A stretch of DNA of 64,000 nucleotides. It comes from Bacillota bacterium (GTDB taxonomy: Bacteria; Bacillota; Negativicutes; Sporomusales; CTSoil-080). The translations under genes were made by a program, and so were the position numbers. The notes beneath the pieces were generated by a model that worked only from the letters and a program-made list of their open reading frames with translations, had not been told where the DNA came from and did no database searches. This document shows positions 9,986-59,849 of the stretch, piece by piece. Every line of letters begins with the position of its first letter. Positions within the stretch are counted from its first letter, which is position 1. The stretch covers positions 40,245 to 104,244 of the forward strand of contig JAGGAE010000003.1 of assembly GCA_017889725.1 (NCBI GenBank). The letters are read 5' to 3'.

Positions 9986-11329
9986 TTATTGAAAGAATGG
10001 AAGCTTAAAGCCGCCCTTCTTTTTGTTGTTCTGCATCCCCTGGAAACGTTTCATCATTTTTTTAGCGTCATCAAATTGTTTTAGCAGACGGTTTACATCC
10101 TGTACTTTGGTGCCACTGCCTACCGCAATACGTTTACGGCGACTACCATTAAGAATTCCGGGGTCACGCCGTTCTTTCGACGTCATGGATTGAATAATAG
10201 CTTCCACACGCTTTAGTTGTTTTTCATCGATTTGTACGTCTTTGAGCTGCTTAAGATTACCCATACCAGGTAACATGCCCAAAACCTGTTCTAAAGGACC
10301 CAGTTTACGCACTTGCTGTAGTTGTTCCAAGAAATCATCCAGTGTAAATTCTTCTTTCCGGAGTTTCTTTTCCAACGCCATGGCTTTTTCGGCATCAAAA
10401 GCTGTTTCCGCCTTTTCTATCAGACTGAGAACATCACCCATGCCTAAAATTCGGGAAGCCATCCGGTCGGGATAAAATGGCTCTAGTGCCTCCAGCTTTT
10501 CCCCCTGACCCGTAAACTTTATCGGGCATCCGGTAACCGCCTTGACCGACAGCGCAGCCCCGCCGCGCGCATCACCGTCAAGCTTAGTAAGAATAACCCC
10601 ATCCAGCCCTAAATCTTTATTAAAGGCTTCGGCAACGGTTACCGCATCCTGACCGGTCATAGCATCAACGACCAGCAGAATTTCATGCGGCTTTACTTGC
10701 TGTTTAACCGCTTTAAGTTCGCCCATGAGTTCCTCATTAATATGCAACCGACCGGCAGTATCGATGATAACCACATCACGAGCATAGCTCTCGGCATATT
10801 CCATGGCTTTTTTCGCAATAACAACCGGGTTTTCTTTATCACCCAGCGAAAACACCGGCAGTTCCAGGTTTTGCCCTAGTACTTCTAGCTGCTTAATAGC
10901 CGCCGGACGATAAACATCGGCCGCAACCAATAAAGGCCGCTTGTTTTGCTTTACCAGGTAACGGGCAAGTTTTCCTGCCGTGGTAGTCTTCCCGGCCCCT
11001 TGCAAACCAACCAACATAATAACGGTTGGTGGCCGGGAAGAAATAGTAATACGGCTTTGGGTCCCACCCATTAGCGCCGTTAATTCATCACTTACAATTT
11101 TTATCACATGCTGCGCCGGTGAAAGACTTTCTAGCACTTCCTGACCGACGGCCCGTTCTTTGACCTTAGCAATAAAATCCTTGGCAACCTTAAAGTTTAC
11201 GTCAGCCTCTAATAGCGCTACCCGAACTTCCCGCATTGCCTCATTTACGTCAGCCTCGGATAGTTTACCACGGCCTCGCAATTTCTTAAATGTATTTTGC
11301 AGTTTATCGGCTAAGCCTTCAAAAACCAC
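9986..11329 (-). CDS. ffh: Signal recognition particle protein Ffh
   Basis: 447 aa with the GTPase motifs GLQGAGKTTT, DTAGR and TKLDGD plus a Met-rich M domain. GTG start with GAGGAGGA upstream. Confidence 0.97.
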   Translation of the reverse strand: MVFEGLADKLQNTFKKLRGRGKLSEADVNEAMREVRVALLEADVNFKVAKDFIAKVKERAVGQEVLESLSPAQHVIKIVSDELTALMGGTQSRITISSRPPTVIMLVGLQGAGKTTTAGKLARYLVKQNKRPLLVAADVYRPAAIKQLEVLGQNLELPVFSLGDKENPVVIAKKAMEYAESYARDVVIIDTAGRLHINEELMGELKAVKQQVKPHEILLVVDAMTGQDAVTVAEAFNKDLGLDGVILTKLDGDARGGAALSVKAVTGCPIKFTGQGEKLEALEPFYPDRMASRILGMGDVLSLIEKAETAFDAEKAMALEKKLRKEEFTLDDFLEQLQQVRKLGPLEQVLGMLPGMGNLKQLKDVQIDEKQLKRVEAIIQSMTSKERRDPGILNGSRRKRIAVGSGTKVQDVNRLLKQFDDAKKMMKRFQGMQNNKKKGGFKLPFFQ

Positions 11330-12731: not shown

Positions 12732-15700
12732 TCAGACCGCCTGATCCATAAATTTAACGGATATTAATTTAGAAATACCCGACTCTTCCATCGTAACTCC
12801 ATGCATTACATCAGCTGCCTCCATAGTTCCCTTTCGGTGGGTTACAATAATAAACTGCGTGCCCCGTGAATAATCCTTCAAAAATTCACTGAACCGCTGC
12901 ACATTGGCTTCATCAAGTGCAGCATCAACTTCATCCAGCACGCAAAACGGGGTAGGCCGATATGTCAGAAACGCGAATAATAGGGCCAAAACAGTTAATG
13001 CCCGTTCACCTCCGGACAACAACGCCAAATTTTGTTGCTTTTTACCAGGCGGCTGCACAACAATTTCAATTCCACTATTGAGCAGGTCTTCTTCTTCATT
13101 TAACACCAGCTGAGCTTTACCGCCGGCAAAAAGCCGGACAAATAACTCGCCAAAGTGTTCGTTAATCTTATGAAACGCTTCCTGAAACTGTTTGGTCATA
13201 GTAGCATCGATTTCTTTAAGCACGGATGTCAGATATTCTTTGGCATCGGTTAAGTCCTGATATTGAGTACGCAGGAATTCGTAACGTTCTTTAAGCCGAC
13301 TATATTCTTCTATCGCCGCCGCATTGATGGGGCCTAGCTTTTCAATATCCTGCTCAAGCTGAGCAATCATGGCCGTAAGCACCTCTGTATTCTCATCACG
13401 GCATAACGCTTTTGCCTCCTCCAGGCTTAAGGCATGGTGATCGCGCAACTGTTCTAAGCAGTAGTTGAGCTCATAGCTAACTTTAGCTTCAAGCAATTCA
13501 ATTTCATGCGCCCGGTTTTGGAGAGTGTTATATTTACGCCGCATTTCTTTATTCTCGCGATCCAACTTCTGTTGTTCGGATAATACTTCAAGTTTAGCAG
13601 CGGTTTGTAGGTCGCGTTCTTTCTGTTGTTCCTCTTTATTTCTCAGCGCGGCATCTTTAACACTAACAATTTCATTGAGTTCAATACCAGCATGAGCGAT
13701 AGCCGCCTGGATACGTTCCGCTTCACTTACCGCGGACTCAATTTGTTTTAACACCCTTCCGCCAATTTGCCGGTACTGCTCACAATTTTCCTTAATAGCA
13801 CTGACTTCTTGCTGTAGTGCGGAAAAATTAATTTTGCTGTCCGTCAATTGCACATTTATGCTTTCCTTTGATGTAAGCAAACGCTTTAACTCATCTTGCC
13901 ACTCATCCAACTGCAGTTTATGCTGACTATCCCGATTTTCCAAAAGGATAATTTGCTTTTCAGCTTCGCTAATTTTATTTTGGAAGCTTTGGGTATCAGC
14001 ACTACAAGTAGTATGCTCTTTTTCTACTGTATCTAAGGAGAAGCCCAGCCTTTTTATATCGGCACTAATTTTATCCCTATGAACTGCCAATTCGGCCTGG
14101 CGCAGTTCCTGTTGCCGTTTCTGTGCATCCGCTTGAGCTATTTTTTCTTCAGTAAGCAGCATTTCCTGTCGGAGATTTTCCGCATGCCTTCGGAGCTCGT
14201 TGCGTTTAGCATCAAGCTCTGCCACATCGTTCTTTAAAACTTCAATTTCATTACTCCGGCTAATAAAGCTGGCTTCCCGCCGCCCGGTGCTGCCGCCAGT
14301 AATACTACCACCAGGATTGATAAGATCGCCTTCCAGCGTAACAATTCGCACACTAAACGATTGCTCTTTCGCGATTCTTAGTGCAGCATCAATATCCTTC
14401 GCAATAATAGTCCGAGCTAGCAGATGTTCAACTACCGGACGATATTTGGCGTCACACTCCACAAGTTCCGAGGCAAAACCAAGAGCCCCGCTGGTCCGCG
14501 CAGCCCGAATTTCGGAATCACGAGGTCGGTTAACTCTGATAGTATTAAGCGGTAAAAAAGTAGCCCGTCCTAAATTTTGATGCTTGAGTAGTTCAATAGC
14601 CGACTTAGCAGCTACATCACTTTCCACGATAATATGCTGAAGCGCTCCCCCTAAAGCCGTTTCAACAGCCACTACATAGTCCCCCGACACATTAAGTACC
14701 TGAGCAACAGCGCCACACACTTCTCGTCGCCAGGGAGCATTACTTTTCAGTACACTTTTAACACCTTTGCCAAAGCCTTCATATTCCGCCTGCATATTGG
14801 TCAATATAGATAGTCTTGATGATGCCTGCCCGATTTGGCCGTTCAAGCGACCTTCCTCCGCCCGCACAGCAATCAGCTCTTTTTCTTGCTGTTGTTTGCT
14901 CGCCGCCATTTGCTGCATTTGGCTATAGCCCAGAGCTAACTCCTGCTCTAATGTGGCCTGTTCCTTTAACACGTTTTGCAATAACGCTTCACTATTTTTA
15001 CATTGGCTAGTAAAGTCCTGCCGTTCTTTATCCAGTTGCAACCGTTTTTGTCCCAGAGTCCCCAAATCCCGTTCCAAAGTGCGCAACGTATTCTTATGGG
15101 TAACGAGTTCCTGCATATGCTCGAAGGTCAGTTCTTTTGCAGCATCTACTTTTTGCTGAACCGCAGCTATCGACGCCTGTACTTCCTGAAACTGTTCCTC
15201 ACTTTTGGACTGAAGAGAATGAGCCTCTTCCGCCTGAAGCTCTTTATTCCGGAGAATCCGTTGTCTATCCTCCAATTGCTTTGTGCTTTCTTCCGATTCT
15301 TTCCGTAGACGTTCTTCTTCCATATGCAAGCGATCCAGACTTTTTTGCTGTTGCTCTATACGTTCACCGAGAACCCCGGCTTTGCCATCCAGTCGCTCAA
15401 TTTCCGTAGCTGAACCGGAAATACTTGCTTCGATATTCTTGATGATTTCATCTAAAGAAGCCAAATTATCTGTCAGACGTTCTTGTTCCGTTTCAGCCAG
15501 TGCTAAGCGGGTCGAAACATTAACTTCGTCATCGGCTATTGCAGCCTTCTCCAACGTAACCGATTCCCGGTTTTTCTCTGCCCGGTTCATCTTATCCATA
15601 AGGAGAGTGACCTGACAAGACGTCAATTCCGCAGCCAGTTCATTGAAACGGGCGGTTCTCGCCGCACTTTCCCCCAATGGCTCAAGCTGATTTTCTATCT

Positions 15701-16289
15701 CTGTCGTTATATCTAGTACACGGCTCAAATTGTTTTCCGTATCGTCTAGCTTTCGCAAAGCTTCCTTCTTACGGTTTTTGTATTTCATAATGCCGGCCGC
15801 TTCTTCGAACAAAACCCGGCGTTCATCTGCTTTACTGTTTAATACCTCATCGACTTTATGCTGACTGATTACTGTCATTGAATCACGGCCAAGGCCGGCC
15901 TCAAGCAATAAGTCATGAATATCCTTTAGCCTGCAGGCCGATTTATTAATATAATACTCACTATCTCCCGACCGAAATACCCGGCGGGTTATCGTCACTT
16001 CATTAAAATCAAGAGGAAGCTTACCATCACTGTTATCAAACACAAGCGTCACTTCAGCCACACCCAGCGGGCGACGTTTATCACTGCCGGCAAAGATAAC
16101 ATCCTCCATTTTGGCACCGCGCAGGTTACGTACGTTTTGTTCGCCAAGTACCCACCGCACTGCATCAGAGATATTGCTTTTACCACTGCCATTCGGCCCA
16201 ACAATAGCCGTAATACCAGGTTTAAACTCTAATTCAGTTTTTTCGGCAAAAGATTTAAACCCATAGGCTTCCAGTTTTTGCAGAAGCAA
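12732..16289 (-). CDS. smc: Chromosome segregation protein SMC
   Basis: Walker A GPNGSGKSN, long coiled coils, signature LSGGE and Walker B FCVLDEVDAALD. The likely start is TTG 16289 (MLLQKLEAYGFKSFAEK, GGGGTGG upstream). The ORF track extends 10 codons further. Confidence 0.95.
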   Translation of the reverse strand: MLLQKLEAYGFKSFAEKTELEFKPGITAIVGPNGSGKSNISDAVRWVLGEQNVRNLRGAKMEDVIFAGSDKRRPLGVAEVTLVFDNSDGKLPLDFNEVTITRRVFRSGDSEYYINKSACRLKDIHDLLLEAGLGRDSMTVISQHKVDEVLNSKADERRVLFEEAAGIMKYKNRKKEALRKLDDTENNLSRVLDITTEIENQLEPLGESAARTARFNELAAELTSCQVTLLMDKMNRAEKNRESVTLEKAAIADDEVNVSTRLALAETEQERLTDNLASLDEIIKNIEASISGSATEIERLDGKAGVLGERIEQQQKSLDRLHMEEERLRKESEESTKQLEDRQRILRNKELQAEEAHSLQSKSEEQFQEVQASIAAVQQKVDAAKELTFEHMQELVTHKNTLRTLERDLGTLGQKRLQLDKERQDFTSQCKNSEALLQNVLKEQATLEQELALGYSQMQQMAASKQQQEKELIAVRAEEGRLNGQIGQASSRLSILTNMQAEYEGFGKGVKSVLKSNAPWRREVCGAVAQVLNVSGDYVVAVETALGGALQHIIVESDVAAKSAIELLKHQNLGRATFLPLNTIRVNRPRDSEIRAARTSGALGFASELVECDAKYRPVVEHLLARTIIAKDIDAALRIAKEQSFSVRIVTLEGDLINPGGSITGGSTGRREASFISRSNEIEVLKNDVAELDAKRNELRRHAENLRQEMLLTEEKIAQADAQKRQQELRQAELAVHRDKISADIKRLGFSLDTVEKEHTTCSADTQSFQNKISEAEKQIILLENRDSQHKLQLDEWQDELKRLLTSKESINVQLTDSKINFSALQQEVSAIKENCEQYRQIGGRVLKQIESAVSEAERIQAAIAHAGIELNEIVSVKDAALRNKEEQQKERDLQTAAKLEVLSEQQKLDRENKEMRRKYNTLQNRAHEIELLEAKVSYELNYCLEQLRDHHALSLEEAKALCRDENTEVLTAMIAQLEQDIEKLGPINAAAIEEYSRLKERYEFLRTQYQDLTDAKEYLTSVLKEIDATMTKQFQEAFHKINEHFGELFVRLFAGGKAQLVLNEEEDLLNSGIEIVVQPPGKKQQNLALLSGGERALTVLALLFAFLTYRPTPFCVLDEVDAALDEANVQRFSEFLKDYSRGTQFIIVTHRKGTMEAADVMHGVTMEESGISKLISVKFMDQAV

Positions 16290-16355
16290 AGAACCACCCC
16301 GCATTTTTATGGTTTCCAATCATCAAGATTTTACCACATAGACTAAGCAGTGTAC

Positions 16356-39503: not shown

Positions 39504-41000
<1,497 letters not shown>

Positions 41001-41028
41001 TTATAATATCATATATAAAGCGTCCAAA
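41001..41028 (-). promoter_or_regulatory. Candidate guaB promoter
   Basis: Minus strand reads TTGGAC (41023-41028)-N16-TATAAT (41001-41006). It lies about 40 nt downstream of the PglX-like stop. Confidence 0.4.
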
Positions 41029-41064: not shown

Positions 41065-44000
41065 TTATTTTTTAAAACGAAACTCCTCAATATCTTGTTG
41101 AGCAATTTGCCATGCATCATAATCTTCTACCGCCTTTTTTGTATCCAGTGTGCCTAAAACAGGAGACGCTAATAAACCACTCTGCTCAAAAGGTGCAATA
41201 CTCAAGCGAATCCCATACCTAGTGTCTACTCTTCTCCCGCAAATTCGTTGTACGCGTTCAATAAAATTCTGCAGTTCTTGCTCATTTTGTTCTCCACAAC
41301 ATGCTTTTAAGTCACTAACACATTGACAAAGATCATGTAAGCAATCCAATCTGTGTGAATGTATCAAACAGGAAAATGCCTGCATGCCCTGCTCAGATTG
41401 ACTAGAAAGCTGCCATACAATCGGACGCTTTCTAAACTGCCTGATATGTCGCTTAAAGAAACGTTTTAGTATCCATTCTTGTATGGAAATGCCGACAATC
41501 GCTTCAAATTCAGCTTCAAACAGTATTATATTGCACCAAGTAGCAATCATCCGTCTTACCAAACCAACTAACCCATTACCTTTACACCCATCTGTCAAAG
41601 GTATGAAAGCCCTATCCTCCATCACTGACAAAATTACACAAGTTAACGCATCTTGGGCCATCTGACTCTCACTGTTTCGATCTCGCCAACCATGCTTCGC
41701 AATCCCCTCTTGAACCCATTGGCAAACAACACTGGGCGGCAACTTCACCGCATGAGTCATTTTGTCTAGCTTGCTTACAATAGTTGCCCCTATATTATCT
41801 TGTCCGTCTTCATATATTTCTTTCAAGCGACTCTTATATTCATTTTCTTGTTCACTTAATCCTTCCATGTCATGCCTATACAGGCTGGGTATCTTACCCA
41901 TTTCCTCGGTTATCTCTCGAACCTCCTTCTCCGACAAACAAAACAATTCTTGTATTTTCAAATCAATAGCATCCCTTGCTAATACATACTTTAAAGCCAT
42001 GCTCCAGACACTAGTCTTTCTCTCAGATACCTTGTCACTAAACGGAAAAAAGCTCTGTGGGTTACGCGGATTGCAGCGGTCGGTAATTTCCAGCTCATAA
42101 AGTTTCCCACTAACCTCAGCCGCACATTTTGCCCACTCCACAAGCGTGGTCATATCATTTACATTTACTTCAGGCACAGGCAGTCTCTTTACATCAATAG
42201 GTTGAAAATTTACCGTCGGATTAAAAGCATTAAGCAGCCATTGGTATATTTTCGAATTGAGCAAACTCAATAAAAACCAGGTATTCTCCGACTCATGGGG
42301 AAAAATGCAACTTGCCGCCATATCTGTCATATGTTCCGCATCAAGAAGCTTAGCACAAAAACATTTACTGCTAATAAGTCCGTATACAATTCCCGGACGC
42401 AGCCAATACTTGACATTCGGTAGTTGGGCCGAATAATGCTGTTTATAATATGCGCGGGCAAAATCATTCCATAGAATCAGGTAGGAAGAATTTCTCTTAT
42501 AGCGGTATCCACTAACTTCTTTCTCATAAGACATCCACCGGCTGGTATTCCAGCGTTCCTTTTCCGGTAATTCCCACCACAGGCGCACAAATCTTTTATT
42601 ATCCGAAGTTTTCATGCCCAAAACAATATCTGCATACTCACTCATCGTTTTGCTCTTTGCAAGCATAGTCCTTACCCCGGAACCCAACCAATATATTATC
42701 GGACTGCCTTTTGATCGTTCTTGGGACTTTTGGCTGTATATATACACACAGGAGGAATCTAAGCCATCATTATACCTTGAGATAGTAGCCAGCAATCCCT
42801 TTTCTTTGCATGGCACGCCCGTTAATTTTATATAAACCCCCAGTTCATTGCCAGTATCCTTTCCCAAAACAAACATAGCCGTATCCACCATCGCTGCAAA
42901 AGCGCCCAACCCCAAATGTCCTAACGTACAGATCGTCCAATTTGCCAGTACATGCTGCCGAAAATTCCGGTAACTATTAATAAATAGGAAAGTTTGAGGA
43001 GTAACCATAGCCACATACTCCTTAGCTAACTCTAGGCATCGCAAAACAAACGCTGTATAAAGATTTCCGGCACCGACAGCATAATTATTTCGCAAATAAT
43101 CCCTCAACACTAGAGGATAATCTCTCTTATCCATATAGGGTGGATTGGTTGTTACCACATCATACTGTTGAACAAGCAATAGAGATAATGGATCCTTTTG
43201 TTCCGAACGCAGAAGCGAGCCTAACTTCACGGCCTCAGGTTCTACACTAACTGTCGGAGCAGCCACAACATGAAATGATAACGCAGTCAGGCTTTGGACG
43301 GATAAGGATGGAACCACCTCTTTGGCCCGTAGCCAGAGGACAGTACGGCAGACCTGTATCGCCTGGTGGTCAATATCAATGCCGAATAAATTCGCATTTA
43401 AAATCGAAATGCAAGCTTCTTTATCACTATAACCACCTTCTTCTCTGTACATAGAAAGCAACAAGTCAAATGAACCTAGCAAGAAATTACCGCACCCACA
43501 CGAAGGATCAAGCACAGTAATTTGATTCACCGGTTTACTTTCTTTCGAAAGCTGGGGTTGCCTTTGAACATAATATTTCATATTAGAAGTTAACGCAGTT
43601 TCAGGATGCATCCGTGACCATAGTTTACCAAGGGAATTTTCCAAGAGATACGCTACCATATATTGTTCAGTATAAATTTGAGTAACTATCCCAATTTCAT
43701 CGTCCGTGTATTTATCCGACCGACAGGCTCGCCGCCTTTCACTGATTGCTTTGCGTTCCTTGTCGTGCCAGAAATGATAAAGCCATCCTAGCGAATCAGG
43801 AAAACTAAGACTGAATTTGCTTTCAGGCTCATCCAATATAAGCCAGGCTGCATTAGCATGGTCTTTATTTAATACCAAACTGACACCCGTCTCGATAAGC
43901 GGAGCTAATTCGGATAACTCAATATCTATTTTCCTTGCCCGCGCAACACATTCTACCGCCAGAATAAAAGCACATTGCCAACTTCTTTTTTTGTCCCCTA

Positions 44001-44067
44001 TAGCCTGTGAAACCACTCGGCGCAGTCTATCCGCAACATCAGCCAGTTGCCTCCGGTAATCTTTCAT
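41065..44067 (-). CDS. Solitary PglX/BREX-type (MmeI-like, gamma-class) N6-adenine DNA methyltransferase
   Basis: About 1000 aa from ATG 44067 (GAGGT 7 nt upstream; the ORF track extends to 44127). Motif I VLDPSCGCGNFLL and motif IV TTNPPY. PglX-like blocks TQIYTEQYMVAYLLENSLGKLW and RKRPIVWQLSS. Hand-counted 60-nt samples give about 40% G+C versus 45-55% in neighbours. Confidence 0.75.
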   Translation of the reverse strand: MKDYRRQLADVADRLRRVVSQAIGDKKRSWQCAFILAVECVARARKIDIELSELAPLIETGVSLVLNKDHANAAWLILDEPESKFSLSFPDSLGWLYHFWHDKERKAISERRRACRSDKYTDDEIGIVTQIYTEQYMVAYLLENSLGKLWSRMHPETALTSNMKYYVQRQPQLSKESKPVNQITVLDPSCGCGNFLLGSFDLLLSMYREEGGYSDKEACISILNANLFGIDIDHQAIQVCRTVLWLRAKEVVPSLSVQSLTALSFHVVAAPTVSVEPEAVKLGSLLRSEQKDPLSLLLVQQYDVVTTNPPYMDKRDYPLVLRDYLRNNYAVGAGNLYTAFVLRCLELAKEYVAMVTPQTFLFINSYRNFRQHVLANWTICTLGHLGLGAFAAMVDTAMFVLGKDTGNELGVYIKLTGVPCKEKGLLATISRYNDGLDSSCVYIYSQKSQERSKGSPIIYWLGSGVRTMLAKSKTMSEYADIVLGMKTSDNKRFVRLWWELPEKERWNTSRWMSYEKEVSGYRYKRNSSYLILWNDFARAYYKQHYSAQLPNVKYWLRPGIVYGLISSKCFCAKLLDAEHMTDMAASCIFPHESENTWFLLSLLNSKIYQWLLNAFNPTVNFQPIDVKRLPVPEVNVNDMTTLVEWAKCAAEVSGKLYELEITDRCNPRNPQSFFPFSDKVSERKTSVWSMALKYVLARDAIDLKIQELFCLSEKEVREITEEMGKIPSLYRHDMEGLSEQENEYKSRLKEIYEDGQDNIGATIVSKLDKMTHAVKLPPSVVCQWVQEGIAKHGWRDRNSESQMAQDALTCVILSVMEDRAFIPLTDGCKGNGLVGLVRRMIATWCNIILFEAEFEAIVGISIQEWILKRFFKRHIRQFRKRPIVWQLSSQSEQGMQAFSCLIHSHRLDCLHDLCQCVSDLKACCGEQNEQELQNFIERVQRICGRRVDTRYGIRLSIAPFEQSGLLASPVLGTLDTKKAVEDYDAWQIAQQDIEEFRFKK

Positions 44068-44216
44068 AGCTTTAACCTCAGTTTGAAAATATTTAAACCA
44101 ATAATTCGCTTTATTCTTTGTAAACACCTACCATTATTTACATTTTATGTAATATTTATTTTCTTACAAGGCATGATTTTTCATCTCATCGCAAACACTA
44201 GACTCAGGAGGTAACT

Positions 44217-45587
44217 ATGTCCACTGGCTATCAAAAGATAAAACCGCACAAACTCGTTATCCCTTCAACAATAACTCCCAAAACTACAAAAAAGAAATAT
44301 GACGCGATAGTAGTTGGTGCTGGGCCTGCCGGTTCTACAGCCGCCTATTTTATGGCAAAAGAAGGGATGAACGTTCTACTTTTAGAGCGAGGACCTTATC
44401 CTGGTGCCAAAAACTGTGGCGGAGCCAGTATTATTGCAGAAGCTACACATAAATTATTTCCGAACTTCTGGGATGAAATGGATTGCGAACGCCTGGTAAC
44501 CAGTCAAAGCTACTGGTGGCTTGACGAAACTTCAGCCATAACAGCAGGATTTCGCAGTATGCGGTTGGCGGCAGCTCCTTTTAACAGATTTACAGTCAAA
44601 AGACCGATATTCTATGCCTGGCTGGCGCAAAAAGCTGTGACTGAAGGAGCTACGCTCTGCCTTAACCATCATGTCTCTCATATTCTTTGGGAAGGCAGAC
44701 AGGCTTATGGCGTTGCCCTTAGCCCCCCTCAGGACGATAATGAGCTTTTGGCTGATATAATTATTGCAGCGGACGGCGCCAATTCTCTGCTTACGGAACG
44801 AAGCGGCCTTACACCAGCAGTCTCCCCCAATCACTTATCCCTATATGTAAAAGAAACAATTGCCCTTTCTTCAGACAGCATCGAAGAACGATTCAACCTA
44901 AAACCTGGCCATGGTGCACTAATCGGCCTCATTGGATATCCCACTGCAGGCTTTAATGGTACCGCCTCAATTCATACGTTTAAAGACAGTATTAGCATTA
45001 ATATCGGCATGACAATAACCAATTACGTTCAAGCCGGGCTGCCCCCCTTTTCCTTGTTGGCTCGCCTTAAACGCCACCCGGTAATTGATACACTCATACG
45101 TGGCGGAATCACAACCGAATACGGTAGTGCCACAATTCCCGAAGGAGGTTATACCGCTATCCCCAAACTTATACACCCCGGCGTGTTAGTAGTCGGTGAT
45201 GCCGCTTCCCTTGTCAATGGAACACATGGTTTTAACCTAGCCATGTGGTCGGGATACTTCGCCGCTCAAACAGCCATTAACGCAAAAATAAGTGGAGACT
45301 TTTCAATAAAAAGTCTCCACTTATATCGCCAGTTACTTGATAAAAGCTTTATACTCCAAAACATGAAACACAATGCCAAGGCTGCTTCTTTTGAACGTGA
45401 TGTTCCATATTTTTTTAGTCTGTACAGTCACATTGCTAATGAAGCCGCCTTTGAAATAACTAAAGTTTATACTATGCCTATAAAAACAAAACGTAAATTA
45501 GTTTGGAAAAAAATCATCGGTTTACAGCCGATAACTCGGATTCTAAGAGATATGTGGAAAGGAATAAAAGTGTTATGGGGCAACTAA
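44217..45587 (+). CDS. fixC: FixC-like FAD-dependent oxidoreductase (ETF-quinone oxidoreductase family)
   Basis: 456 aa with YDAIVVGAGPAGSTAAYFMAKEGMNVLLLERGPYPGAKNCGG. The SD is CAGGAGGTAA. It is followed by an overlapping fixX. Confidence 0.8.
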   Translation: MSTGYQKIKPHKLVIPSTITPKTTKKKYDAIVVGAGPAGSTAAYFMAKEGMNVLLLERGPYPGAKNCGGASIIAEATHKLFPNFWDEMDCERLVTSQSYWWLDETSAITAGFRSMRLAAAPFNRFTVKRPIFYAWLAQKAVTEGATLCLNHHVSHILWEGRQAYGVALSPPQDDNELLADIIIAADGANSLLTERSGLTPAVSPNHLSLYVKETIALSSDSIEERFNLKPGHGALIGLIGYPTAGFNGTASIHTFKDSISINIGMTITNYVQAGLPPFSLLARLKRHPVIDTLIRGGITTEYGSATIPEGGYTAIPKLIHPGVLVVGDAASLVNGTHGFNLAMWSGYFAAQTAINAKISGDFSIKSLHLYRQLLDKSFILQNMKHNAKAASFERDVPYFFSLYSHIANEAAFEITKVYTMPIKTKRKLVWKKIIGLQPITRILRDMWKGIKVLWGN

Positions 45588-45862
45588 ACTTTGACGACAT
45601 ACTAAAATATATCCTATTTCAAGTCGACGACAACTGGCAACATGTTACTTTTCGCCAAACGGAACGATGTACTGACTGTTCGGACAAACCCTGTCTGACC
45701 AGTTGTCCTTCCGGAGTATTTTCCTGGAACTCTATTGCCGGTGATCCCATTTTAATTGCCTATAAGCAATGTGTAGAATGCGGCATATGTCGGTTAATTT
45801 GCAACAATATTGAATTCTCATATCCTCACGGCGGATTTGGTGTCACCTATCAGCAAGGTTAG
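45575..45862 (+). CDS. fixX: FixX-like ferredoxin
   Basis: 95 aa from ATG 45575 with MGQLNFDDILKY...CTDCSDKPCLTSCPSGVF...CVECGICRLIC. It overlaps fixC by 13 nt. Confidence 0.8.
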   Translation: MGQLNFDDILKYILFQVDDNWQHVTFRQTERCTDCSDKPCLTSCPSGVFSWNSIAGDPILIAYKQCVECGICRLICNNIEFSYPHGGFGVTYQQG

Positions 45863-46356
45863 TCTTTTCCTAAAAGAAAAGGGGCAAACCCCACAGAAGA
45901 CCAAACCTCGTTATACATACCGCGCAACACTCCATCTATTCGCCTTCTTAGCATATTTTTACTCTGGGCGAGCGAACTGAAAAACAACCTGGTTTGAGGA
46001 TAAGGGCTGTTTTGTGAAGCCTGCTGATAATATTGACGAGAATTTTCAACTAACGAATAAAGCCGCCAGAGTTTGGTTAAATCCGTGATAGGTTTATCAT
46101 GAACTTCAAGGAATAACCGCTGTGCGGTCTGCCAGTTTGTATCCGATCCTAATAACAAGCTTGATTCAATATCAGGATACTTTCCATTTTCCCCTTCTAA
46201 ATCGCACGCCAGTTCCAATAAACGCTCAAATTCCACTTGATACTTACAGACAAGTTCTAAAACCGGTTTTAGTTCCGGTAACACGCCAAAACTTAACTCT
46301 TCTAGTTCCTTACGGATACCAGTCTCTAACCGAACTGCAAATTGTAATGCTTTCAT
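45859..46356 (-). CDS. Hypothetical all-helical protein (degenerate ferritin/rubrerythrin-like guess)
   Basis: 165 aa from ATG 46356 (GAGGAGA SD). It has two helical halves (KALQFAVRLETGIRKELEEL and LFFSSLAQSKNMLRRRIDGVL) and no ExxH metal motifs. Its stop overlaps the fixX stop (TTAG). Confidence 0.4.
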   Translation of the reverse strand: MKALQFAVRLETGIRKELEELSFGVLPELKPVLELVCKYQVEFERLLELACDLEGENGKYPDIESSLLLGSDTNWQTAQRLFLEVHDKPITDLTKLWRLYSLVENSRQYYQQASQNSPYPQTRLFFSSLAQSKNMLRRRIDGVLRGMYNEVWSSVGFAPFLLGKD

Positions 46357-46459: not shown

Positions 46460-47116
46460 TTATGGGATTAAAACAGAGGTCAGTGTCTTTAGATTTACCC
46501 AGGCCCTGAAAGTACCGAACAGAGGTAAAATACCTCCCGGGAATGAAGGTCCGAACACATTCAAGGCTCCTATACAAATCATTAGCGGGGCCGCGCTTGT
46601 TCCCGGTCCAAATAAAATAACACATTCATCAACTTCACTCAGTTGCCCGCCAATTACCCAGCCACCTACAAGCAGGGCGCCGATATTTTGGCCACCAAAT
46701 TCATCTAACTGCTCCAACAGCTTGCATTGCTGCCTTACATAGGTACCGGTAGATTTAGGTTTAATCATCGGTTTGTGAACAGCCATCTGGTTACTCGCCA
46801 ACCCACATGCCTTACTAATAGGCGGAATTAAGAAAGGACCTTCAACGACTGCTGTTATAGTACATATATCAATTAGCGCCTCGCTTAATAATATGTCATA
46901 TTCAGGAAGAGTAGCATTCGGCGGTCGAAAACGAACCGTATTTACTCCGGACAAGCCAACTGCAGGAAGTACACTAATAACCCAGTCATCAATCCCCCCA
47001 AGACGCCCAAATACCGCGGAGCCGTCTAAAAGCAAAAGCAACACGTTCCGCCCAGCCAGTCCCTTAAGCTCTCTGACAAACTCTCTGTTACTGTAGTGAT
47101 GCGAGCCTGTATTCAT
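46460..47116 (-). CDS. Hypothetical protein with an internal duplication of an Sm-like/DUF2642-like motif
   Basis: 218 aa with strong SD AGAGGAGG. The repeats GRNVLLLLLDGSAVFGRLGGIDDWVISVLP and GQNIGALLVGGWVIGGQLSEVDECVILFGP align. Confidence 0.45.
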   Translation of the reverse strand: MNTGSHHYSNREFVRELKGLAGRNVLLLLLDGSAVFGRLGGIDDWVISVLPAVGLSGVNTVRFRPPNATLPEYDILLSEALIDICTITAVVEGPFLIPPISKACGLASNQMAVHKPMIKPKSTGTYVRQQCKLLEQLDEFGGQNIGALLVGGWVIGGQLSEVDECVILFGPGTSAAPLMICIGALNVFGPSFPGGILPLFGTFRAWVNLKTLTSVLIP

Positions 47117-48272: not shown

Positions 48273-50321
48273 CTAGTTATTAAAAATCATGCCAAAATAA
48301 TCACCGAACCGTTCCGTTAAAAGCGGTTGAACCTGTAAAAAATGTTCTTTATCCGCTACCGTCTTTTGCGCAGCCTGCCTGGCCTTAAGCAAGATTCCGG
48401 TGTCTCGGACAATGTCGGCTATCTTCAAATCAGGCAGTCCATGCTGTCTTACACCAAAGAACTGACCCGGACCACGCAAAATAAGATCCTTCTCCGCGAG
48501 TTCAAAACCGTCGTCGACTTTCACCATAATATCTAACCGTTCTTTTGTTTCCGGGTTTTGATTGTCTGATAACAGAATACAATAGGATTGATGCTCCCCC
48601 CTGCCGATTCGTCCTCGCAATTGATGAAGCTGCGCTAAACCAAAACGCTCCGCTCCTTCAATCACCATAACACTGGCGTTGGGTACATTAACGCCAACTT
48701 CAATGACCGTAGTTGCTACCAGAACTTTTGTTTCGCCGCTATAAAAGGCATTCATAATTATATCTTTTTCCTGCGACTTCATTTTGCCGTGAACCAGACC
48801 ACAGGGAATGTCTTTAAAATACGTGGTTTTTAGCTGCTCATACATTTGAACAGCTGCTTTCGCTTCCATTTTTTCCGATTCTTCCACCAGAGGACATACA
48901 ACATAGGCTTGCCGTCCGGCCTTTATTTCCTTCTCAATAAAAGTATAAATTCTCTGTCGCATCTCACTCCCCACCGCATAGGTCTTAATCGGCTTACGTC
49001 CAGGCGGGAGTTGTCGGATAACCGAAACATCTAAATCTCCGTAAACTGTAAGTGCCATAGTTCTTGGTATGGGCGTTGCCGTCATTACTAAAACATCGGG
49101 CATCTGCCCCTTCGCTTGAAACAAGGCCCGCTGACGTACACCGAAACGGTGCTGCTCATCTGTTACTACTAGTCCTAGACAATTAAACTCAACATCTTCC
49201 TGAATCAGAGCGTGTGTTCCCACAACAATATCCACAAGTCCGTCTTTAATTCTCGCTAATACTTCCTGTCGGGTACGCCGCGTCAATTTCCCAGTCAATA
49301 CAGCCAGACGGATACCAAAAGGCGCCAATAGTTGGGCTAACGTATGATAGTGCTGCTCTGCCAAAATTTCTGTAGGTGCCATCATGGCTCCCTGATACCC
49401 GTTTTCGACCGTTTTTGCCAGTGCTATGGCGGCAAGCACAGTTTTACCTGAACCTACATCTCCCTGAATCAGGCGCTGCATTACGGTAGTATCTTCCATG
49501 TCGACTTTAATATCGCTAAGAGCCGCTTTTTGATCCTGAGTAAGTGAAAAAGGCAACGCCGCCGTCAGCTTTGCTAGCAACGGTCCGTCAGTACTGTGTT
49601 TTATTCCTTGGCTGGTTTGCTGATTCTTTCTTTTAAGCCACAATAAACCACACTGAAGTAAATATAGTTCTTCGAAAACCAGTCGTCGTCTGGCGGCCTC
49701 CAACAGCTTTTCCGATTCTGGAAAATGCACAAGCTTCAAAGCCATTGACCTATCAATTAAATCAAACTCGCTGACTATATTGGGAGGAATAAACTCACGA
49801 ATATCAGTATATTCTTCTAACACTTGATAGATTAACGACCGAAGCCATCTTTGCCCAACATTTTCGCTGGCTGAATAAATAGGTACAATTCGACCTGTAT
49901 GCAAAAGATCGGACCCATCCAGAACTTCTACTTCCGCATGAGAAATCTGTACCTGCCCAAATTTGCGTTCCACTTTTCCAGAAACAATAAGATTCAACCC
50001 TGGCTTAAACCACTTTTTCACATAAGGTTGGTTAAACCATACCAGCTGGGCAAAACCCGTCGTATCTTTCACCGTTATTTTTGTTAAGGTAAGGCCGCGC
50101 CTTGGCTTAGTTTCCTGACTGCTGACCGTAACCGCCAGGAATGTACTCACTCCATTAGCAGGTAAATCACGGATAGAGTCAAGCTGGCTACGATCTTCAT
50201 ATCGTCTGGGATAATGCTCCAATAATTGTCCAATTGTAAATATGTTAAGTTTAGCTAGTAAGTTTGCCTTAACCGGGCCAACACCTTTTGCATATTTTAT
50301 ATTTGTTGACCAATGAACCAA
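48273..50321 (-). CDS. recG: ATP-dependent DNA helicase RecG
   Basis: 682 aa with a wedge domain, GDVGSGKT, DEQHRFGV, and QLHQLRGRIGRG. TTG start with GGGGTGA 6 nt upstream. Confidence 0.95.
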   Translation of the reverse strand: MVHWSTNIKYAKGVGPVKANLLAKLNIFTIGQLLEHYPRRYEDRSQLDSIRDLPANGVSTFLAVTVSSQETKPRRGLTLTKITVKDTTGFAQLVWFNQPYVKKWFKPGLNLIVSGKVERKFGQVQISHAEVEVLDGSDLLHTGRIVPIYSASENVGQRWLRSLIYQVLEEYTDIREFIPPNIVSEFDLIDRSMALKLVHFPESEKLLEAARRRLVFEELYLLQCGLLWLKRKNQQTSQGIKHSTDGPLLAKLTAALPFSLTQDQKAALSDIKVDMEDTTVMQRLIQGDVGSGKTVLAAIALAKTVENGYQGAMMAPTEILAEQHYHTLAQLLAPFGIRLAVLTGKLTRRTRQEVLARIKDGLVDIVVGTHALIQEDVEFNCLGLVVTDEQHRFGVRQRALFQAKGQMPDVLVMTATPIPRTMALTVYGDLDVSVIRQLPPGRKPIKTYAVGSEMRQRIYTFIEKEIKAGRQAYVVCPLVEESEKMEAKAAVQMYEQLKTTYFKDIPCGLVHGKMKSQEKDIIMNAFYSGETKVLVATTVIEVGVNVPNASVMVIEGAERFGLAQLHQLRGRIGRGEHQSYCILLSDNQNPETKERLDIMVKVDDGFELAEKDLILRGPGQFFGVRQHGLPDLKIADIVRDTGILLKARQAAQKTVADKEHFLQVQPLLTERFGDYFGMIFNN

Positions 50322-58100: not shown

Positions 58101-58904
58101 TTACATTTTTTCAACAGGAAAATAAATATCAGTTACAAACTCATCTGCGGATTTTACTTGCATAGGACCCTTTATATATTGTTCGTAGGGAGCAGAAACA
58201 ACCCTATATCCGTTTTCACTGATCCATTCCATAAGTTTTGCATATACGTTTGAAAGATTGGAATAGGGACCCTTACATACCGCTGTAGCGCAAAGTCCTC
58301 CAGGTAGGACCTGTGTAAATTCATTTACTTCTGACACTGGGAGAGCAACCGCAGTATCATTATTAGTTGGATCAAACTCCTTATCGTAATACATTGCTAT
58401 AGGTCCTGCAATAATTTCCATGCCATTTGTATGGGCTATGCTAAATAATTTGCCAATGTATTTAGCATAATCATCTATACCCATACGTTGTCTACTGTAT
58501 AAAATATTCTGAGGCTTTGTGTCAACTAGCTTTACTTCAATATCGTTAATAAACGCCATAATATCGATACCTCTTTTCAAATTTGAAATATCACCCATTA
58601 TCCGGTTCTGAATATCTTCGTACTGTTTAATTTGAGTTTTAATGTACTCTTGCTTAATCAATATTTTTTCGAGGGTATAGTTTTTATCATTTATTGCTAT
58701 GATCTCCCTAATTTCCTCAAGGGAAAAATCATAACCTTTTAACCGCGTAATAAATAGCAACTGACGGATCTGGGCTACATCATAAAATCTATACCCATTT
58801 TCTTTGCTTATATGCTTGGGTTTAATAAGGCCAATATCGTCATAATGACGTAATGCCCTTGTGGTGACACCACATATTTTTGAGAATTCTCCTATCGAAA
58901 GCAA
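58101..58904 (-). CDS. MerR-family regulator with C-terminal GyrI-like effector domain (BmrR/TipA-like architecture)
   Basis: 267 aa with the HTH region LSIGEFSKICGVTTRALRHYDDIGLIKP...YRFYD, a coiled-coil linker, and an effector domain of about 150 aa. TTG start with GGAGGTG 4 nt upstream. Confidence 0.85.
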   Translation of the reverse strand: MLSIGEFSKICGVTTRALRHYDDIGLIKPKHISKENGYRFYDVAQIRQLLFITRLKGYDFSLEEIREIIAINDKNYTLEKILIKQEYIKTQIKQYEDIQNRIMGDISNLKRGIDIMAFINDIEVKLVDTKPQNILYSRQRMGIDDYAKYIGKLFSIAHTNGMEIIAGPIAMYYDKEFDPTNNDTAVALPVSEVNEFTQVLPGGLCATAVCKGPYSNLSNVYAKLMEWISENGYRVVSAPYEQYIKGPMQVKSADEFVTDIYFPVEKM

Positions 58905-58946
58905 TTTGCACCTCCATAATAATATTAGTTTGCAAACCCTGAGATA

Positions 58947-58977
58947 AGTATAAACGTTTACGTTACGTTAAAGTCAA
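58947..58977 (-). promoter_or_regulatory. MerR-type promoter with 19-bp spacer upstream of the merR-family gene
   Basis: Minus strand reads TTGACT (58972-58977)-TTAACGTAACGTAAACGTT (19 nt)-TATACT (58947-58952). The spacer holds three ACGT cores and the dyad AACGT-N7-ACGTT. Confidence 0.55.
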
Positions 58978-59007
58978 TAATTTTTCATACCTTTACCAAC
59001 ACCCGAT

Positions 59008-59042
59008 AGAAAAAATTTTCCAGCAAGCAAATTGCTTGCTGG
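59008..59042 (-). terminator. Hairpin terminator after the acyltransferase gene
   Basis: The palindrome CCAGCAAGCAA-a-TTGCTTGCTGG is followed on the minus-strand RNA by AAAAUUUUUUCU. Confidence 0.55.
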
Positions 59043-59054
59043 ATTTAGAGCAAA

Positions 59055-59849
59055 TTATAACCCATAACCGGTTTCAACTAGTTTTGCTAGTCGAGAAACA
59101 AATCTTGCGGCCGGAGCACCGTCAATGACATCATGATCGATCAAGATTGTCATATAAAGAAATTCGCGAATTTCAATTCGCTCTTTGAAAATTCCTGGTT
59201 TCTTTACGATAGATCCTAAAGCAAAACAAACGGGAAGCGGACTTACCGGTATTGCCCAGCCTCTCACCTTTCCCAATGTGCCTACTGATGTTATCACAGC
59301 GGTTCCCGCCATTATTTTCATTAAAAAAGGTTTTTTTAATATGATATGTTTCCATATAAATACTCTGATAAACTGTGGTAATGAAACGTATATTTTCATC
59401 GCCCATTTAAATTTGTTTTCACCTAAAAGATAATCTTTTTCACTCATAACTTCTTGATTTTTCGCTAATTTTATTTCATTATAAATATCTTCTATGGTTT
59501 TTTTATTTATTTTTCTTATTACAACAGGCAAAGGAACTCTTTCATTCATAACCTTTTTTTCAACGATAATGGATACATCAACATCATCAAAGATTACCAA
59601 TTTATTTTTACCCTTACGTATTGCATGAATATCTTTATATTCATTAATTGCTTGGCCAATACACTTAATCATCCAGGCATTAAATGATATATCTTTTTTT
59701 TGATAACGTAAATTCCTTATTGCTTTTCGAGCATGAGTAACATCTAATTCAATAAGTGCCTTAACATGATGCTTTCTCATTCCAATATATCCTGCATCAA
59801 AAGTCGACTGACGACTTGATGGAAATTCTTTAATTTCGTATTTTTCCAC
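59055..59849 (-). CDS. Stand-alone 2-oxoacid dehydrogenase E2-type acyltransferase catalytic domain (no lipoyl or subunit-binding domains)
   Basis: 264 aa. GTG start with AAAGAGGT 6 nt upstream. GTAVITSVGTLGKVRGWAIPVSPLPVCFALGSI and the catalytic DHDVIDGAPAARF. A hand-counted 60-nt sample gives about 27% G+C. Confidence 0.7.
   Translation of the reverse strand: MEKYEIKEFPSSRQSTFDAGYIGMRKHHVKALIELDVTHARKAIRNLRYQKKDISFNAWMIKCIGQAINEYKDIHAIRKGKNKLVIFDDVDVSIIVEKKVMNERVPLPVVIRKINKKTIEDIYNEIKLAKNQEVMSEKDYLLGENKFKWAMKIYVSLPQFIRVFIWKHIILKKPFLMKIMAGTAVITSVGTLGKVRGWAIPVSPLPVCFALGSIVKKPGIFKERIEIREFLYMTILIDHDVIDGAPAARFVSRLAKLVETGYGL

Follow-up and report, generated by a model that had tools for sequence, protein, structure and literature searches.

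What is a gene for a PglX-like DNA methyltransferase, the kind of protein studied as the specificity subunit of bacteriophage exclusion (BREX) systems, doing alone between guaB and fixC? The question is raised by a 64,000-nucleotide stretch of a Bacillota genome from the Negativicutes (assembly GCA_017889725.1, contig JAGGAE010000003.1, positions 40,245 to 104,244 of the forward strand; this whole stretch is hereafter the window). A first-pass annotation made from the letters alone left three options, namely a remnant of a lost BREX island, an orphan epigenetic methyltransferase, or a single-polypeptide system with an effector function hidden near one of its ends. We favor the second, on the grounds of a locus fixed in 12 of 12 genomes, purifying selection, conserved catalytic residues and invariant specificity positions. 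With a probability of roughly 60%, the gene encodes a domesticated orphan methyltransferase that would methylate one asymmetric site without partners and whose mark would serve a host function, analogous to CamA, the lineage-specific orphan CAAAAA methylase of Clostridioides difficile (PMC8187626). The protein looks domesticated, rather than like a broken or hidden phage defense, because it is intact, fixed beside guaB throughout the clade, and unchanged in its DNA-reading residues.

The open reading frame (ORF) was called mechanically at 41065..44127 on the minus strand, with a GTG start and 1020 amino acids (aa). The ATG at 44067, which is preceded by a GAGG ribosome-binding site, is the likelier start, and its 1000-aa product, in keeping with the approximate length first given, is identical to database protein P0001 from a metagenome-assembled genome (MAG) labeled 'Firmicutes/Bacillota bacterium'. 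The four peptide blocks quoted in the first-pass annotation are all present, with VLDPSCGCGNFLL at 43477-43515, TTNPPY within 43132-43155, TQIYTEQYMVAYLLENSLGKLW at 43618-43686, and RKRPIVWQLSS within 41398-41436. The gene and its parts are as follows (SAM, S-adenosylmethionine).

41065..44067, minus strand: gene for a PglX-family solitary N6-adenine DNA methyltransferase, 1000 aa plus stop, assigned by Pfam and PglX models and a full-length fold match
43798..44067, minus strand: N-terminal helical region, residues 1-90, a reduced and poorly conserved counterpart of the BrxX N-terminal domain
42748..43797, minus strand: methyltransferase domain, residues 91-440, without most of the BrxX insert 390-500
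43489..43509, minus strand: SAM-binding motif I, DPSCGCG, residues 187-193, with D187 and G191 invariant in this family and in PglX
43135..43146, minus strand: catalytic motif IV, NPPY, residues 308-311, with N308 and Y311 (BrxX N508 and Y511) invariant
42148..42747, minus strand: target recognition domain (TRD), residues 441-640, from the TaqI_C match and the BrxX alignment
41068..42147, minus strand: BrxX-type C-terminal domain, residues 641-1000, mostly helical, with profile positions 832-942 corresponding to PglX 1021-1144
about 41413-41460, minus strand: conserved C-terminal motif F870-H874-R881-P882-W885, common to PglX and BrxX

On sequence and model, the product is a gamma-class N6-adenine DNA methyltransferase of the PglX/BrxX family, with a built-in TRD and a PglX-like fold from end to end. 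Pfam returned Eco57I, MmeI_Mtase and N6_Mtase, with TaqI_C just under threshold. The PglX-like identity first proposed was borne out far beyond chance by PADLOC (PglX, E = 2e-113) and by the NCBIfam model BREX_1_MTaseX (NF033452; 416.5 bits, E = 2.5e-124, which lies under the curated cutoff of 500 bits), while the NCBIfam BREX-2 model reached 44 bits only. The nearest solved sequences are Salmonella PglX (8C45/8Q56) and Escherichia coli BrxX (9EWZ/8ZEK), with CamA, M.BseCI and MmeI far behind. An AlphaFold (AF2) model of the full-length protein, built from 25 family members (pLDDT 80.9, pTM 0.74), matched PglX/BrxX over its whole length (TMq 0.59-0.68, E of about 1e-30 to 1e-34), and the next match was the orphan methylase CamA. 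The protein is nevertheless smaller than BrxX. Profile position 53 corresponds to PglX residue 169, which leaves it about 115 N-terminal residues short, and profile positions 256-294 correspond to PglX 379-496, so that about 80 residues of the insert are missing and PglX-only alignment blocks follow residues 276-289. Matches to mobile PglX proteins begin at residue 91-93 or so, and neither the BrxX N-terminal domain (BrxX 1-210) nor the insert (BrxX 390-500) is complete here.

These terminal regions bear directly on the proposal that the protein is a single-polypeptide restriction or defense enzyme of a Type IIG/IIL-like kind, with an effector hidden at its N- or C-terminus. A PADLOC match to REase_MTase_IIG (5e-100) and the appearance of MmeI and BpuSI among the fold matches of the full-length model would suit such an enzyme. 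The residues themselves do not: the model shows helices only over residues 1-90, where W30 is the sole invariant residue, and this segment contains neither a PD-(D/E)xK or other conserved acidic motif, as had already been noted from the letters, nor a match to any nuclease family or fold of the sort expected of an ordinary Type IIG enzyme. MmeI resembles the protein in the methyltransferase core only (E = 1e-6), and when residues 641-1000 were modeled alone (pLDDT 86.7) the only significant PDB matches were the C-terminal domains of BrxX/PglX, with the next match at E = 0.5. Because residues 1-90 are motif-free helices and the C-terminal model matches BrxX/PglX only, the protein carries neither a nuclease nor a cryptic effector, which contradicts the third option and makes it very improbable. 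The one family-specific element of the C-terminal domain, the motif LHPxTVYxLLxEGIxxEGWRC at residues 776-796 or so (window 41680-41742), is likewise without a Pfam match. The window protein reads LPPSVVCQWVQEGIAKHGWRD at this point, and the segment aligns with nothing in ordinary PglX; an excisionase-type helix-turn-helix was considered for it and dropped, with no Pfam match on seven segments.

Approximately 25 homologs of full length (966-1063 aa, 37-50% identity) were recovered in a word-indexed search, and Negativicutes were the source of every one, the carriers being Selenomonadales, Sporomusaceae, 'Negativicutes' and 'Bacillota' MAGs and the cultured species Anaeroselena agilis (Acetonemataceae; homolog P0024, GCA_032334055.1). 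When 1.84 billion representatives were searched exhaustively with a profile, eight scored 1445-1586 bits over their full length and the next score was 897 bits; judged by these scores, the family is a discrete clade. It should be noted that a pattern-based contig scan gave seven loci only, and that the distribution is taken mainly from protein searches and contig look-ups. The genomic setting is shared as well. A block consisting of rpmB, RecG, a small ORF, VTT, hyp218, (tautomerase), hyp165, (fixX-fixC), the methyltransferase, (amidohydrolase), guaB, (polysaccharide deacetylase) and PBP1 is present at L001, L002, L004, L006, L007, L012-L014, L018, L019 and L021/22, and all 12 of the related syntenic Negativicutes genomes carry the methyltransferase at the same locus, upstream of guaB. 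Three of these 12 were reached when the lineage was sampled independently, with hyp218 rather than the methyltransferase as the starting point, and the methyltransferase was found in every one. The ORF is intact and full-length in every genome examined, and no BREX gene (brxA, brxB, brxC, pglZ or brxL) lies within 10 kb at the 12 syntenic loci (about 20 kb were inspected around each homolog).

The interval between guaB and fixC, occupied in these 12 genomes, is empty in Sporomusa, where the same synteny is kept but fixC leads straight to guaB across a 150-nucleotide (nt) spacer with the same guaB promoter and with no remnant of the methyltransferase. This suggests either that the gene was gained anciently or that it was lost in Sporomusa. 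The Sporomusa VTT gene (L020:9115-9449) consists of two out-of-frame fragments and hyp218 is absent there, which indicates that the region has suffered deletions and leaves room for a loss of the methyltransferase in that genus. The first-pass description of the gene as inserted between guaB and fixCX therefore holds relative to the Sporomusa empty site; the event is ancient, and the argument from composition fails. The contrast reported (about 40% G+C against 45-55% in the flanks) was overstated, as the gene has 42.1% G+C against a mean of 44.8% for the genes of the window (standard deviation 3.4; z = -0.8), both flanking genes have 44-45%, and third-position G+C (GC3) gives z = -0.44. Composition was accordingly rejected as evidence of horizontal transfer. 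A phage or plasmid origin was also set aside, the nearest plasmid and phage relatives being ordinary BREX-1 pglX genes that are 24-29% identical, and a look around the gene for flanking direct or inverted repeats, tRNA attachment sites and inversion shufflons found nothing meaningful.

Across nine genomes, pairwise identity of the methyltransferase correlates with that of RecG (r = 0.97), hyp165 (0.95), VTT (0.91) and guaB (0.86), and its synonymous divergence (dS) is similar to that of the flanking genes, being the highest of the block in the closest pair (0.48 vs 0.25-0.46). These correlations and the comparable dS indicate vertical descent, apparently without allele replacement. Ratios of nonsynonymous to synonymous divergence (dN/dS) for the gene and its parts were as follows.

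whole methyltransferase gene: 0.25-0.29
target recognition domain: 0.14-0.22
methyltransferase domain: 0.19-0.24
C-terminal domain: 0.25-0.35
residues 1-90: 0.33-0.44

By these ratios, every domain of the methyltransferase is under purifying selection, although in comparison with guaB (0.02-0.10) and RecG (0.10-0.16) it is the least constrained gene of the block. This pattern is difficult to reconcile with a decaying remnant of a lost BREX island that has no function now. Such an origin would account for a PglX-like protein without partners, for an N-terminus and a methyltransferase-domain insert shorter than those of BrxX, and for a score below the BREX-1 cutoff. A decaying gene, however, would not be expected as a full-length, intact ORF in all genomes examined, down to 38% identity, with dN/dS of 0.14-0.44 across its domains, more than 150 invariant columns in the 25-member alignment, and a divergence congruent with that of its neighbors. 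We regard the decaying-remnant explanation as effectively refuted for the present state of the gene, with hardly any probability left to it; BREX-type ancestry is plausible.

A further line of evidence concerns the residues expected to read DNA. The base-reading residues of BrxX, K681, D684, R751, Q784 and N823, were placed by a HMMER alignment and the published contact list at L483, K486, P550, M583 and N620. All 25 family members have the same residues at these five positions, whereas the entropy there is 1.6-2.7 bits in 40 PglX proteins of 1204-1317 aa. Catalytic, adenine-pocket and backbone-contact columns (D187, G191, T129, N308, Y311 and K516) are invariant in the family and in the 40 PglX proteins alike. 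The variability of the base-reading columns in ordinary PglX supports the mapping of positions, and their freezing in this family argues for one conserved recognition sequence throughout the clade, predicted to differ from GGTAAG. Domain-wide identities follow the same division. In BrxX no part is more variable than the TRD (PMC11842806), and mean pairwise identity among the 40 PglX proteins is 0.458 in the TRD vs 0.560 in the methyltransferase domain; within the family the corresponding values are 0.656 and 0.638, making the TRD its most conserved part.

One of the two main competing explanations is a catalytically silent, site-specific DNA-binding protein that would act as a regulator or sensor and methylate its site rarely or never. 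In favor of such a protein, BrxX alone is inactive even though it binds both DNA and SAM, the C-terminal domain with its role in DNA-tail binding has been kept, and the gene evolves quickly for one encoding a housekeeping enzyme. We nonetheless consider it unlikely. D187, G191, T129, N308, P309, P310 and Y311 are invariant in 25 sequences whose overall identity is 38-50%, and invariance of catalytic and SAM-binding residues is hard to explain without catalysis; moreover, the PglX of Streptomyces coelicolor, which is without the BrxX flanking domains, is reported to methylate alone in vitro.

In the domesticated-methyltransferase reading, the protein would bind one conserved asymmetric site, flip the target adenine into the NPPY pocket, and methylate a single strand in a SAM-dependent reaction. 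Methylation would be autonomous because the modules through which BrxX activity is proposed to depend on the BrxBCXZ complex appear to have been shed. Drobiazko et al. regard three parts as specific to BREX type 1, namely the N-terminal domain, the C-terminal domain and the 390-500 insert, and propose them for complex contacts or auto-inhibition (PMC11842806). The resulting mark would have a role for the host, either in epigenetic regulation or as a housekeeping self-mark, rather than in BREX-type phage exclusion. As to how this state arose, we tentatively suggest, at somewhat less than even odds, that an ancestor of the clade acquired a BREX-1-type PglX between fixC and guaB, that the gene was domesticated into a core-genome orphan methyltransferase of frozen specificity, and that the enzyme became autonomously active through the shedding of most of the N-terminal domain and of the insert.

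The other main competitor is a trans-acting component, that is, a methyltransferase inactive alone that works with BREX-like or other partners elsewhere in the chromosome. BrxX provides the precedent, since by itself it shows no methylation in vitro or in vivo and depends on BrxB, BrxC and BrxZ (PMC11842806); the BrxX-type C-terminal domain is retained here under purifying selection, and our inspection covered about 20 kb around each homolog. We still judge this explanation improbable, to about the same degree as a silent DNA-binding protein. No BREX genes were found within 10 kb at 12 loci or among the scanned proteins of the window, the sporadic, island-borne occurrence of BREX systems contrasts with the fixed housekeeping locus of this gene, the protein is missing much of the N-terminal domain and of the insert proposed for BREX contacts, and invariant specificity residues are atypical of defense PglX. 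In the window, the absence of BREX partners that had been claimed for the whole stretch was upheld for the proteins scanned, which were the 10 largest other ORFs and the immediate neighbors with Pfam and two neighbors with PADLOC, about 25 smaller ORFs lying outside the scan. The accompanying claim that the window has no helicase or ATPase gene was wrong, as RecG (48273-50321), SMC (12732-16319) and Ffh (9986-11329) are present; all three are housekeeping genes and none is BREX-like.

Several observations weigh against a domesticated, autonomous enzyme. For every member, methylation activity is predicted from conserved residues only, and no methylome data for members of the clade were found in the literature. 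The C-terminal domain, kept in full, is among those suggested to hold BrxX in an inactive state, which means that a partner could still be required, and BREX or other partner genes are possible beyond the roughly 20 kb inspected per homolog. The specificity mapping depends on an alignment of about 25% identity, anchored by conserved motifs; confidence in the model is lowest in the TRD (pLDDT 35-68 for residues 490-590); and the 40 PglX proteins used for comparison were drawn from matches to this query, with a taxonomy far wider than that of the family. Finally, the methyltransferase is the fastest-evolving gene in its block, being 81% identical where guaB is 99% identical and having a dN/dS 2-10 times that of its neighbors, and such fast evolution would also suit a conflict-related gene.

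Comparison with characterized systems places the protein between two groups. It resembles BREX-1 PglX/BrxX in sharing the same fold over the methyltransferase, target recognition and C-terminal domains (TMq 0.59-0.68), motifs I and IV, the adenine-pocket residues, and the C-terminal F-H-R-P-W motif. It differs in missing about 115 N-terminal and about 80 insert residues (390-500), in scoring under the NCBIfam cutoff, in having no BREX neighbors, a fixed locus and vertical inheritance, and in having invariant specificity positions where BrxX has its most variable domain. Three features tested for BREX-1 membership, namely the score cutoff, the N-terminal domain with the insert, and the BREX gene context, all came out against it, while those of an orphan methyltransferase were found: no adjacent restriction or defense gene, and a lineage-wide fixed locus with conserved specificity determinants. 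As far as sequence and model can tell, the protein is one that descends from and would work like BREX-1 PglX, yet would group functionally with the orphan methyltransferases.

Among these, CamA is the closest parallel, being a solitary gamma-class N6-adenine methyltransferase with an integral TRD that is conserved in one Firmicutes lineage and rare elsewhere (PMC8187626), as well as the second-best structural match to the full-length model. CamA is, however, only about 577 aa long and without the BrxX-type C-terminal domain, the two sequences are similar over the methyltransferase core only (E = 3e-18), and its activity and sporulation role have been demonstrated, whereas activity is a prediction for the protein described here. 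MmeI-family Type IIL enzymes likewise combine methyltransferase and TRD in one polypeptide, for which single-strand methylation of an asymmetric site would be expected. MmeI differs in having an N-terminal nuclease, absent here, and in being without the BrxX-type C-terminal domain, and its similarity to this protein is weak (E = 1e-6, TMq 0.38); with no nuclease, the protein is not an MmeI-type enzyme. The S. coelicolor PglX (BREX type 2/Pgl) is also of PglX type without the BrxX-specific flanking domains, but it belongs to a Pgl gene cluster, and the protein here keeps the BrxX C-terminal domain. Our search of the literature on solitary or orphan PglX and on Negativicutes methylomes found nothing on this clade and no description of a lineage-fixed, PglX-derived orphan.

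A solitary, lineage-conserved relative of the BREX specificity subunit could offer a comparison for the modules that license or inhibit methylation, since it retains the BrxX C-terminal domain without most of the N-terminal domain and of the 390-500 insert. If the orphan-methyltransferase reading is true, the protein would be a natural 'minimal BrxX' separating DNA methylation from BREX licensing, and the C-terminal domain, supposedly restricted to BREX, would have a BREX-independent role. It would also be the second case, after CamA, of a Firmicutes lineage fixing an orphan adenine methylase for an asymmetric site, and would point to an epigenetic role in a group with spore-forming diderms among its members. 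For annotation there is a caution, in that a strong PglX match implies neither a BREX system nor a defense island.

The immediate surroundings of the gene in the window are as follows.

39504..40958, minus strand: guaB (IMP dehydrogenase), conserved downstream neighbor, from family matches
41000..41027, minus strand: guaB's own promoter, TTGGAC (41027-41022), N16, TATAAT (41005-41000), also kept in the Sporomusa empty site
44142..44169, minus strand: putative methyltransferase promoter, TTGTAA, N16, TAAAAT, a consensus match only
44217..45587, plus strand: fixC, divergent upstream neighbor of the methyltransferase
45575..45862, plus strand: fixX, divergent together with fixC, the pair occurring in most but not all syntenic genomes
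45859..46356, minus strand: hyp165, a conserved hypothetical protein of 165 aa, encoded upstream on the strand of the methyltransferase and not a dedicated partner
46460-47116: hyp218, a 218-aa hypothetical protein with no family assignment

As first described, the methyltransferase is divergent from fixC and ends about 40 nt before the guaB promoter, the distance from its stop codon to the -35 box being 37 nt. The intergenic region shared with fixC is 149 nt long and holds the promoter-like site of the methyltransferase. Co-transcription of the methyltransferase with guaB is unlikely, given the separate, conserved promoter of guaB and the convergent amidohydrolase gene that lies between the two in several genomes. 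The mechanical ORF call places the start of guaB at a TTG (41000) that falls within the -10 box of the guaB promoter; the true start codon, ATG 40958, follows the ribosome-binding site GAAAGGAG and gives 484 aa, as in homologs.

Two conserved neighbors were considered as partners and rejected. hyp165 has no family or defense match and occurs in Sporomusa, which is without the methyltransferase. hyp218 also has no family or defense match, and in Lucifera it is found in a different context. Its distribution is as narrow in the lineage as that of the methyltransferase (40 matches), some homologs are labeled 'snRNP-like' by JGI, and the sole outgroup homolog, from Lucifera butyrica (39% identical, L017:10001-10651), adjoins the sporulation genes ytrH and ytrI.

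Gene content differs among clade members in the interval between fixC and the methyltransferase, the latter being constant. For example, at L019:14394-16224 and L021:14005-16449 the interval has gained an ECF-type sigma factor and two DUF3795 genes, with a weak UDG-like gene in addition at L021/L022, and in other members a PG_binding/3D-domain gene lies between fixC and the methyltransferase. The extra genes at L019 and L021 are co-directional with the methyltransferase and the last of them ends 22 nt before it, so that they may form an operon.

Solitary PglX-like enzymes are not unique to this Negativicutes clade. A Limnochordia MAG (L015:7656-10343) encodes an 895-aa PglX-like methyltransferase, 33% identical over residues 66-632, that is solitary and in a housekeeping context, between three M42 aminopeptidase genes and lrgB. 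The nearest outgroup is a tandem pair of PglX-like genes (1303 and 1156 aa) that overlap by 4 nt (L009:657-4568 and L009:4565-8035; also L008:489-4136) and adjoin sodA, a spoU-type methylase gene and tldD/pmbA; no BREX gene lies in the 10 kb downstream, the contig ending upstream.

Elsewhere in the window, at 58101-59849, two adjacent minus-strand genes have a G+C content of 35.2% and 32.5% (z = -2.8 and -3.6) and a GC3 down to 23%. They encode a MerR-family regulator resembling a choline-utilization activator and a CAT/E2-like acyltransferase, and as the only clear compositional outliers in the window they were probably acquired recently.

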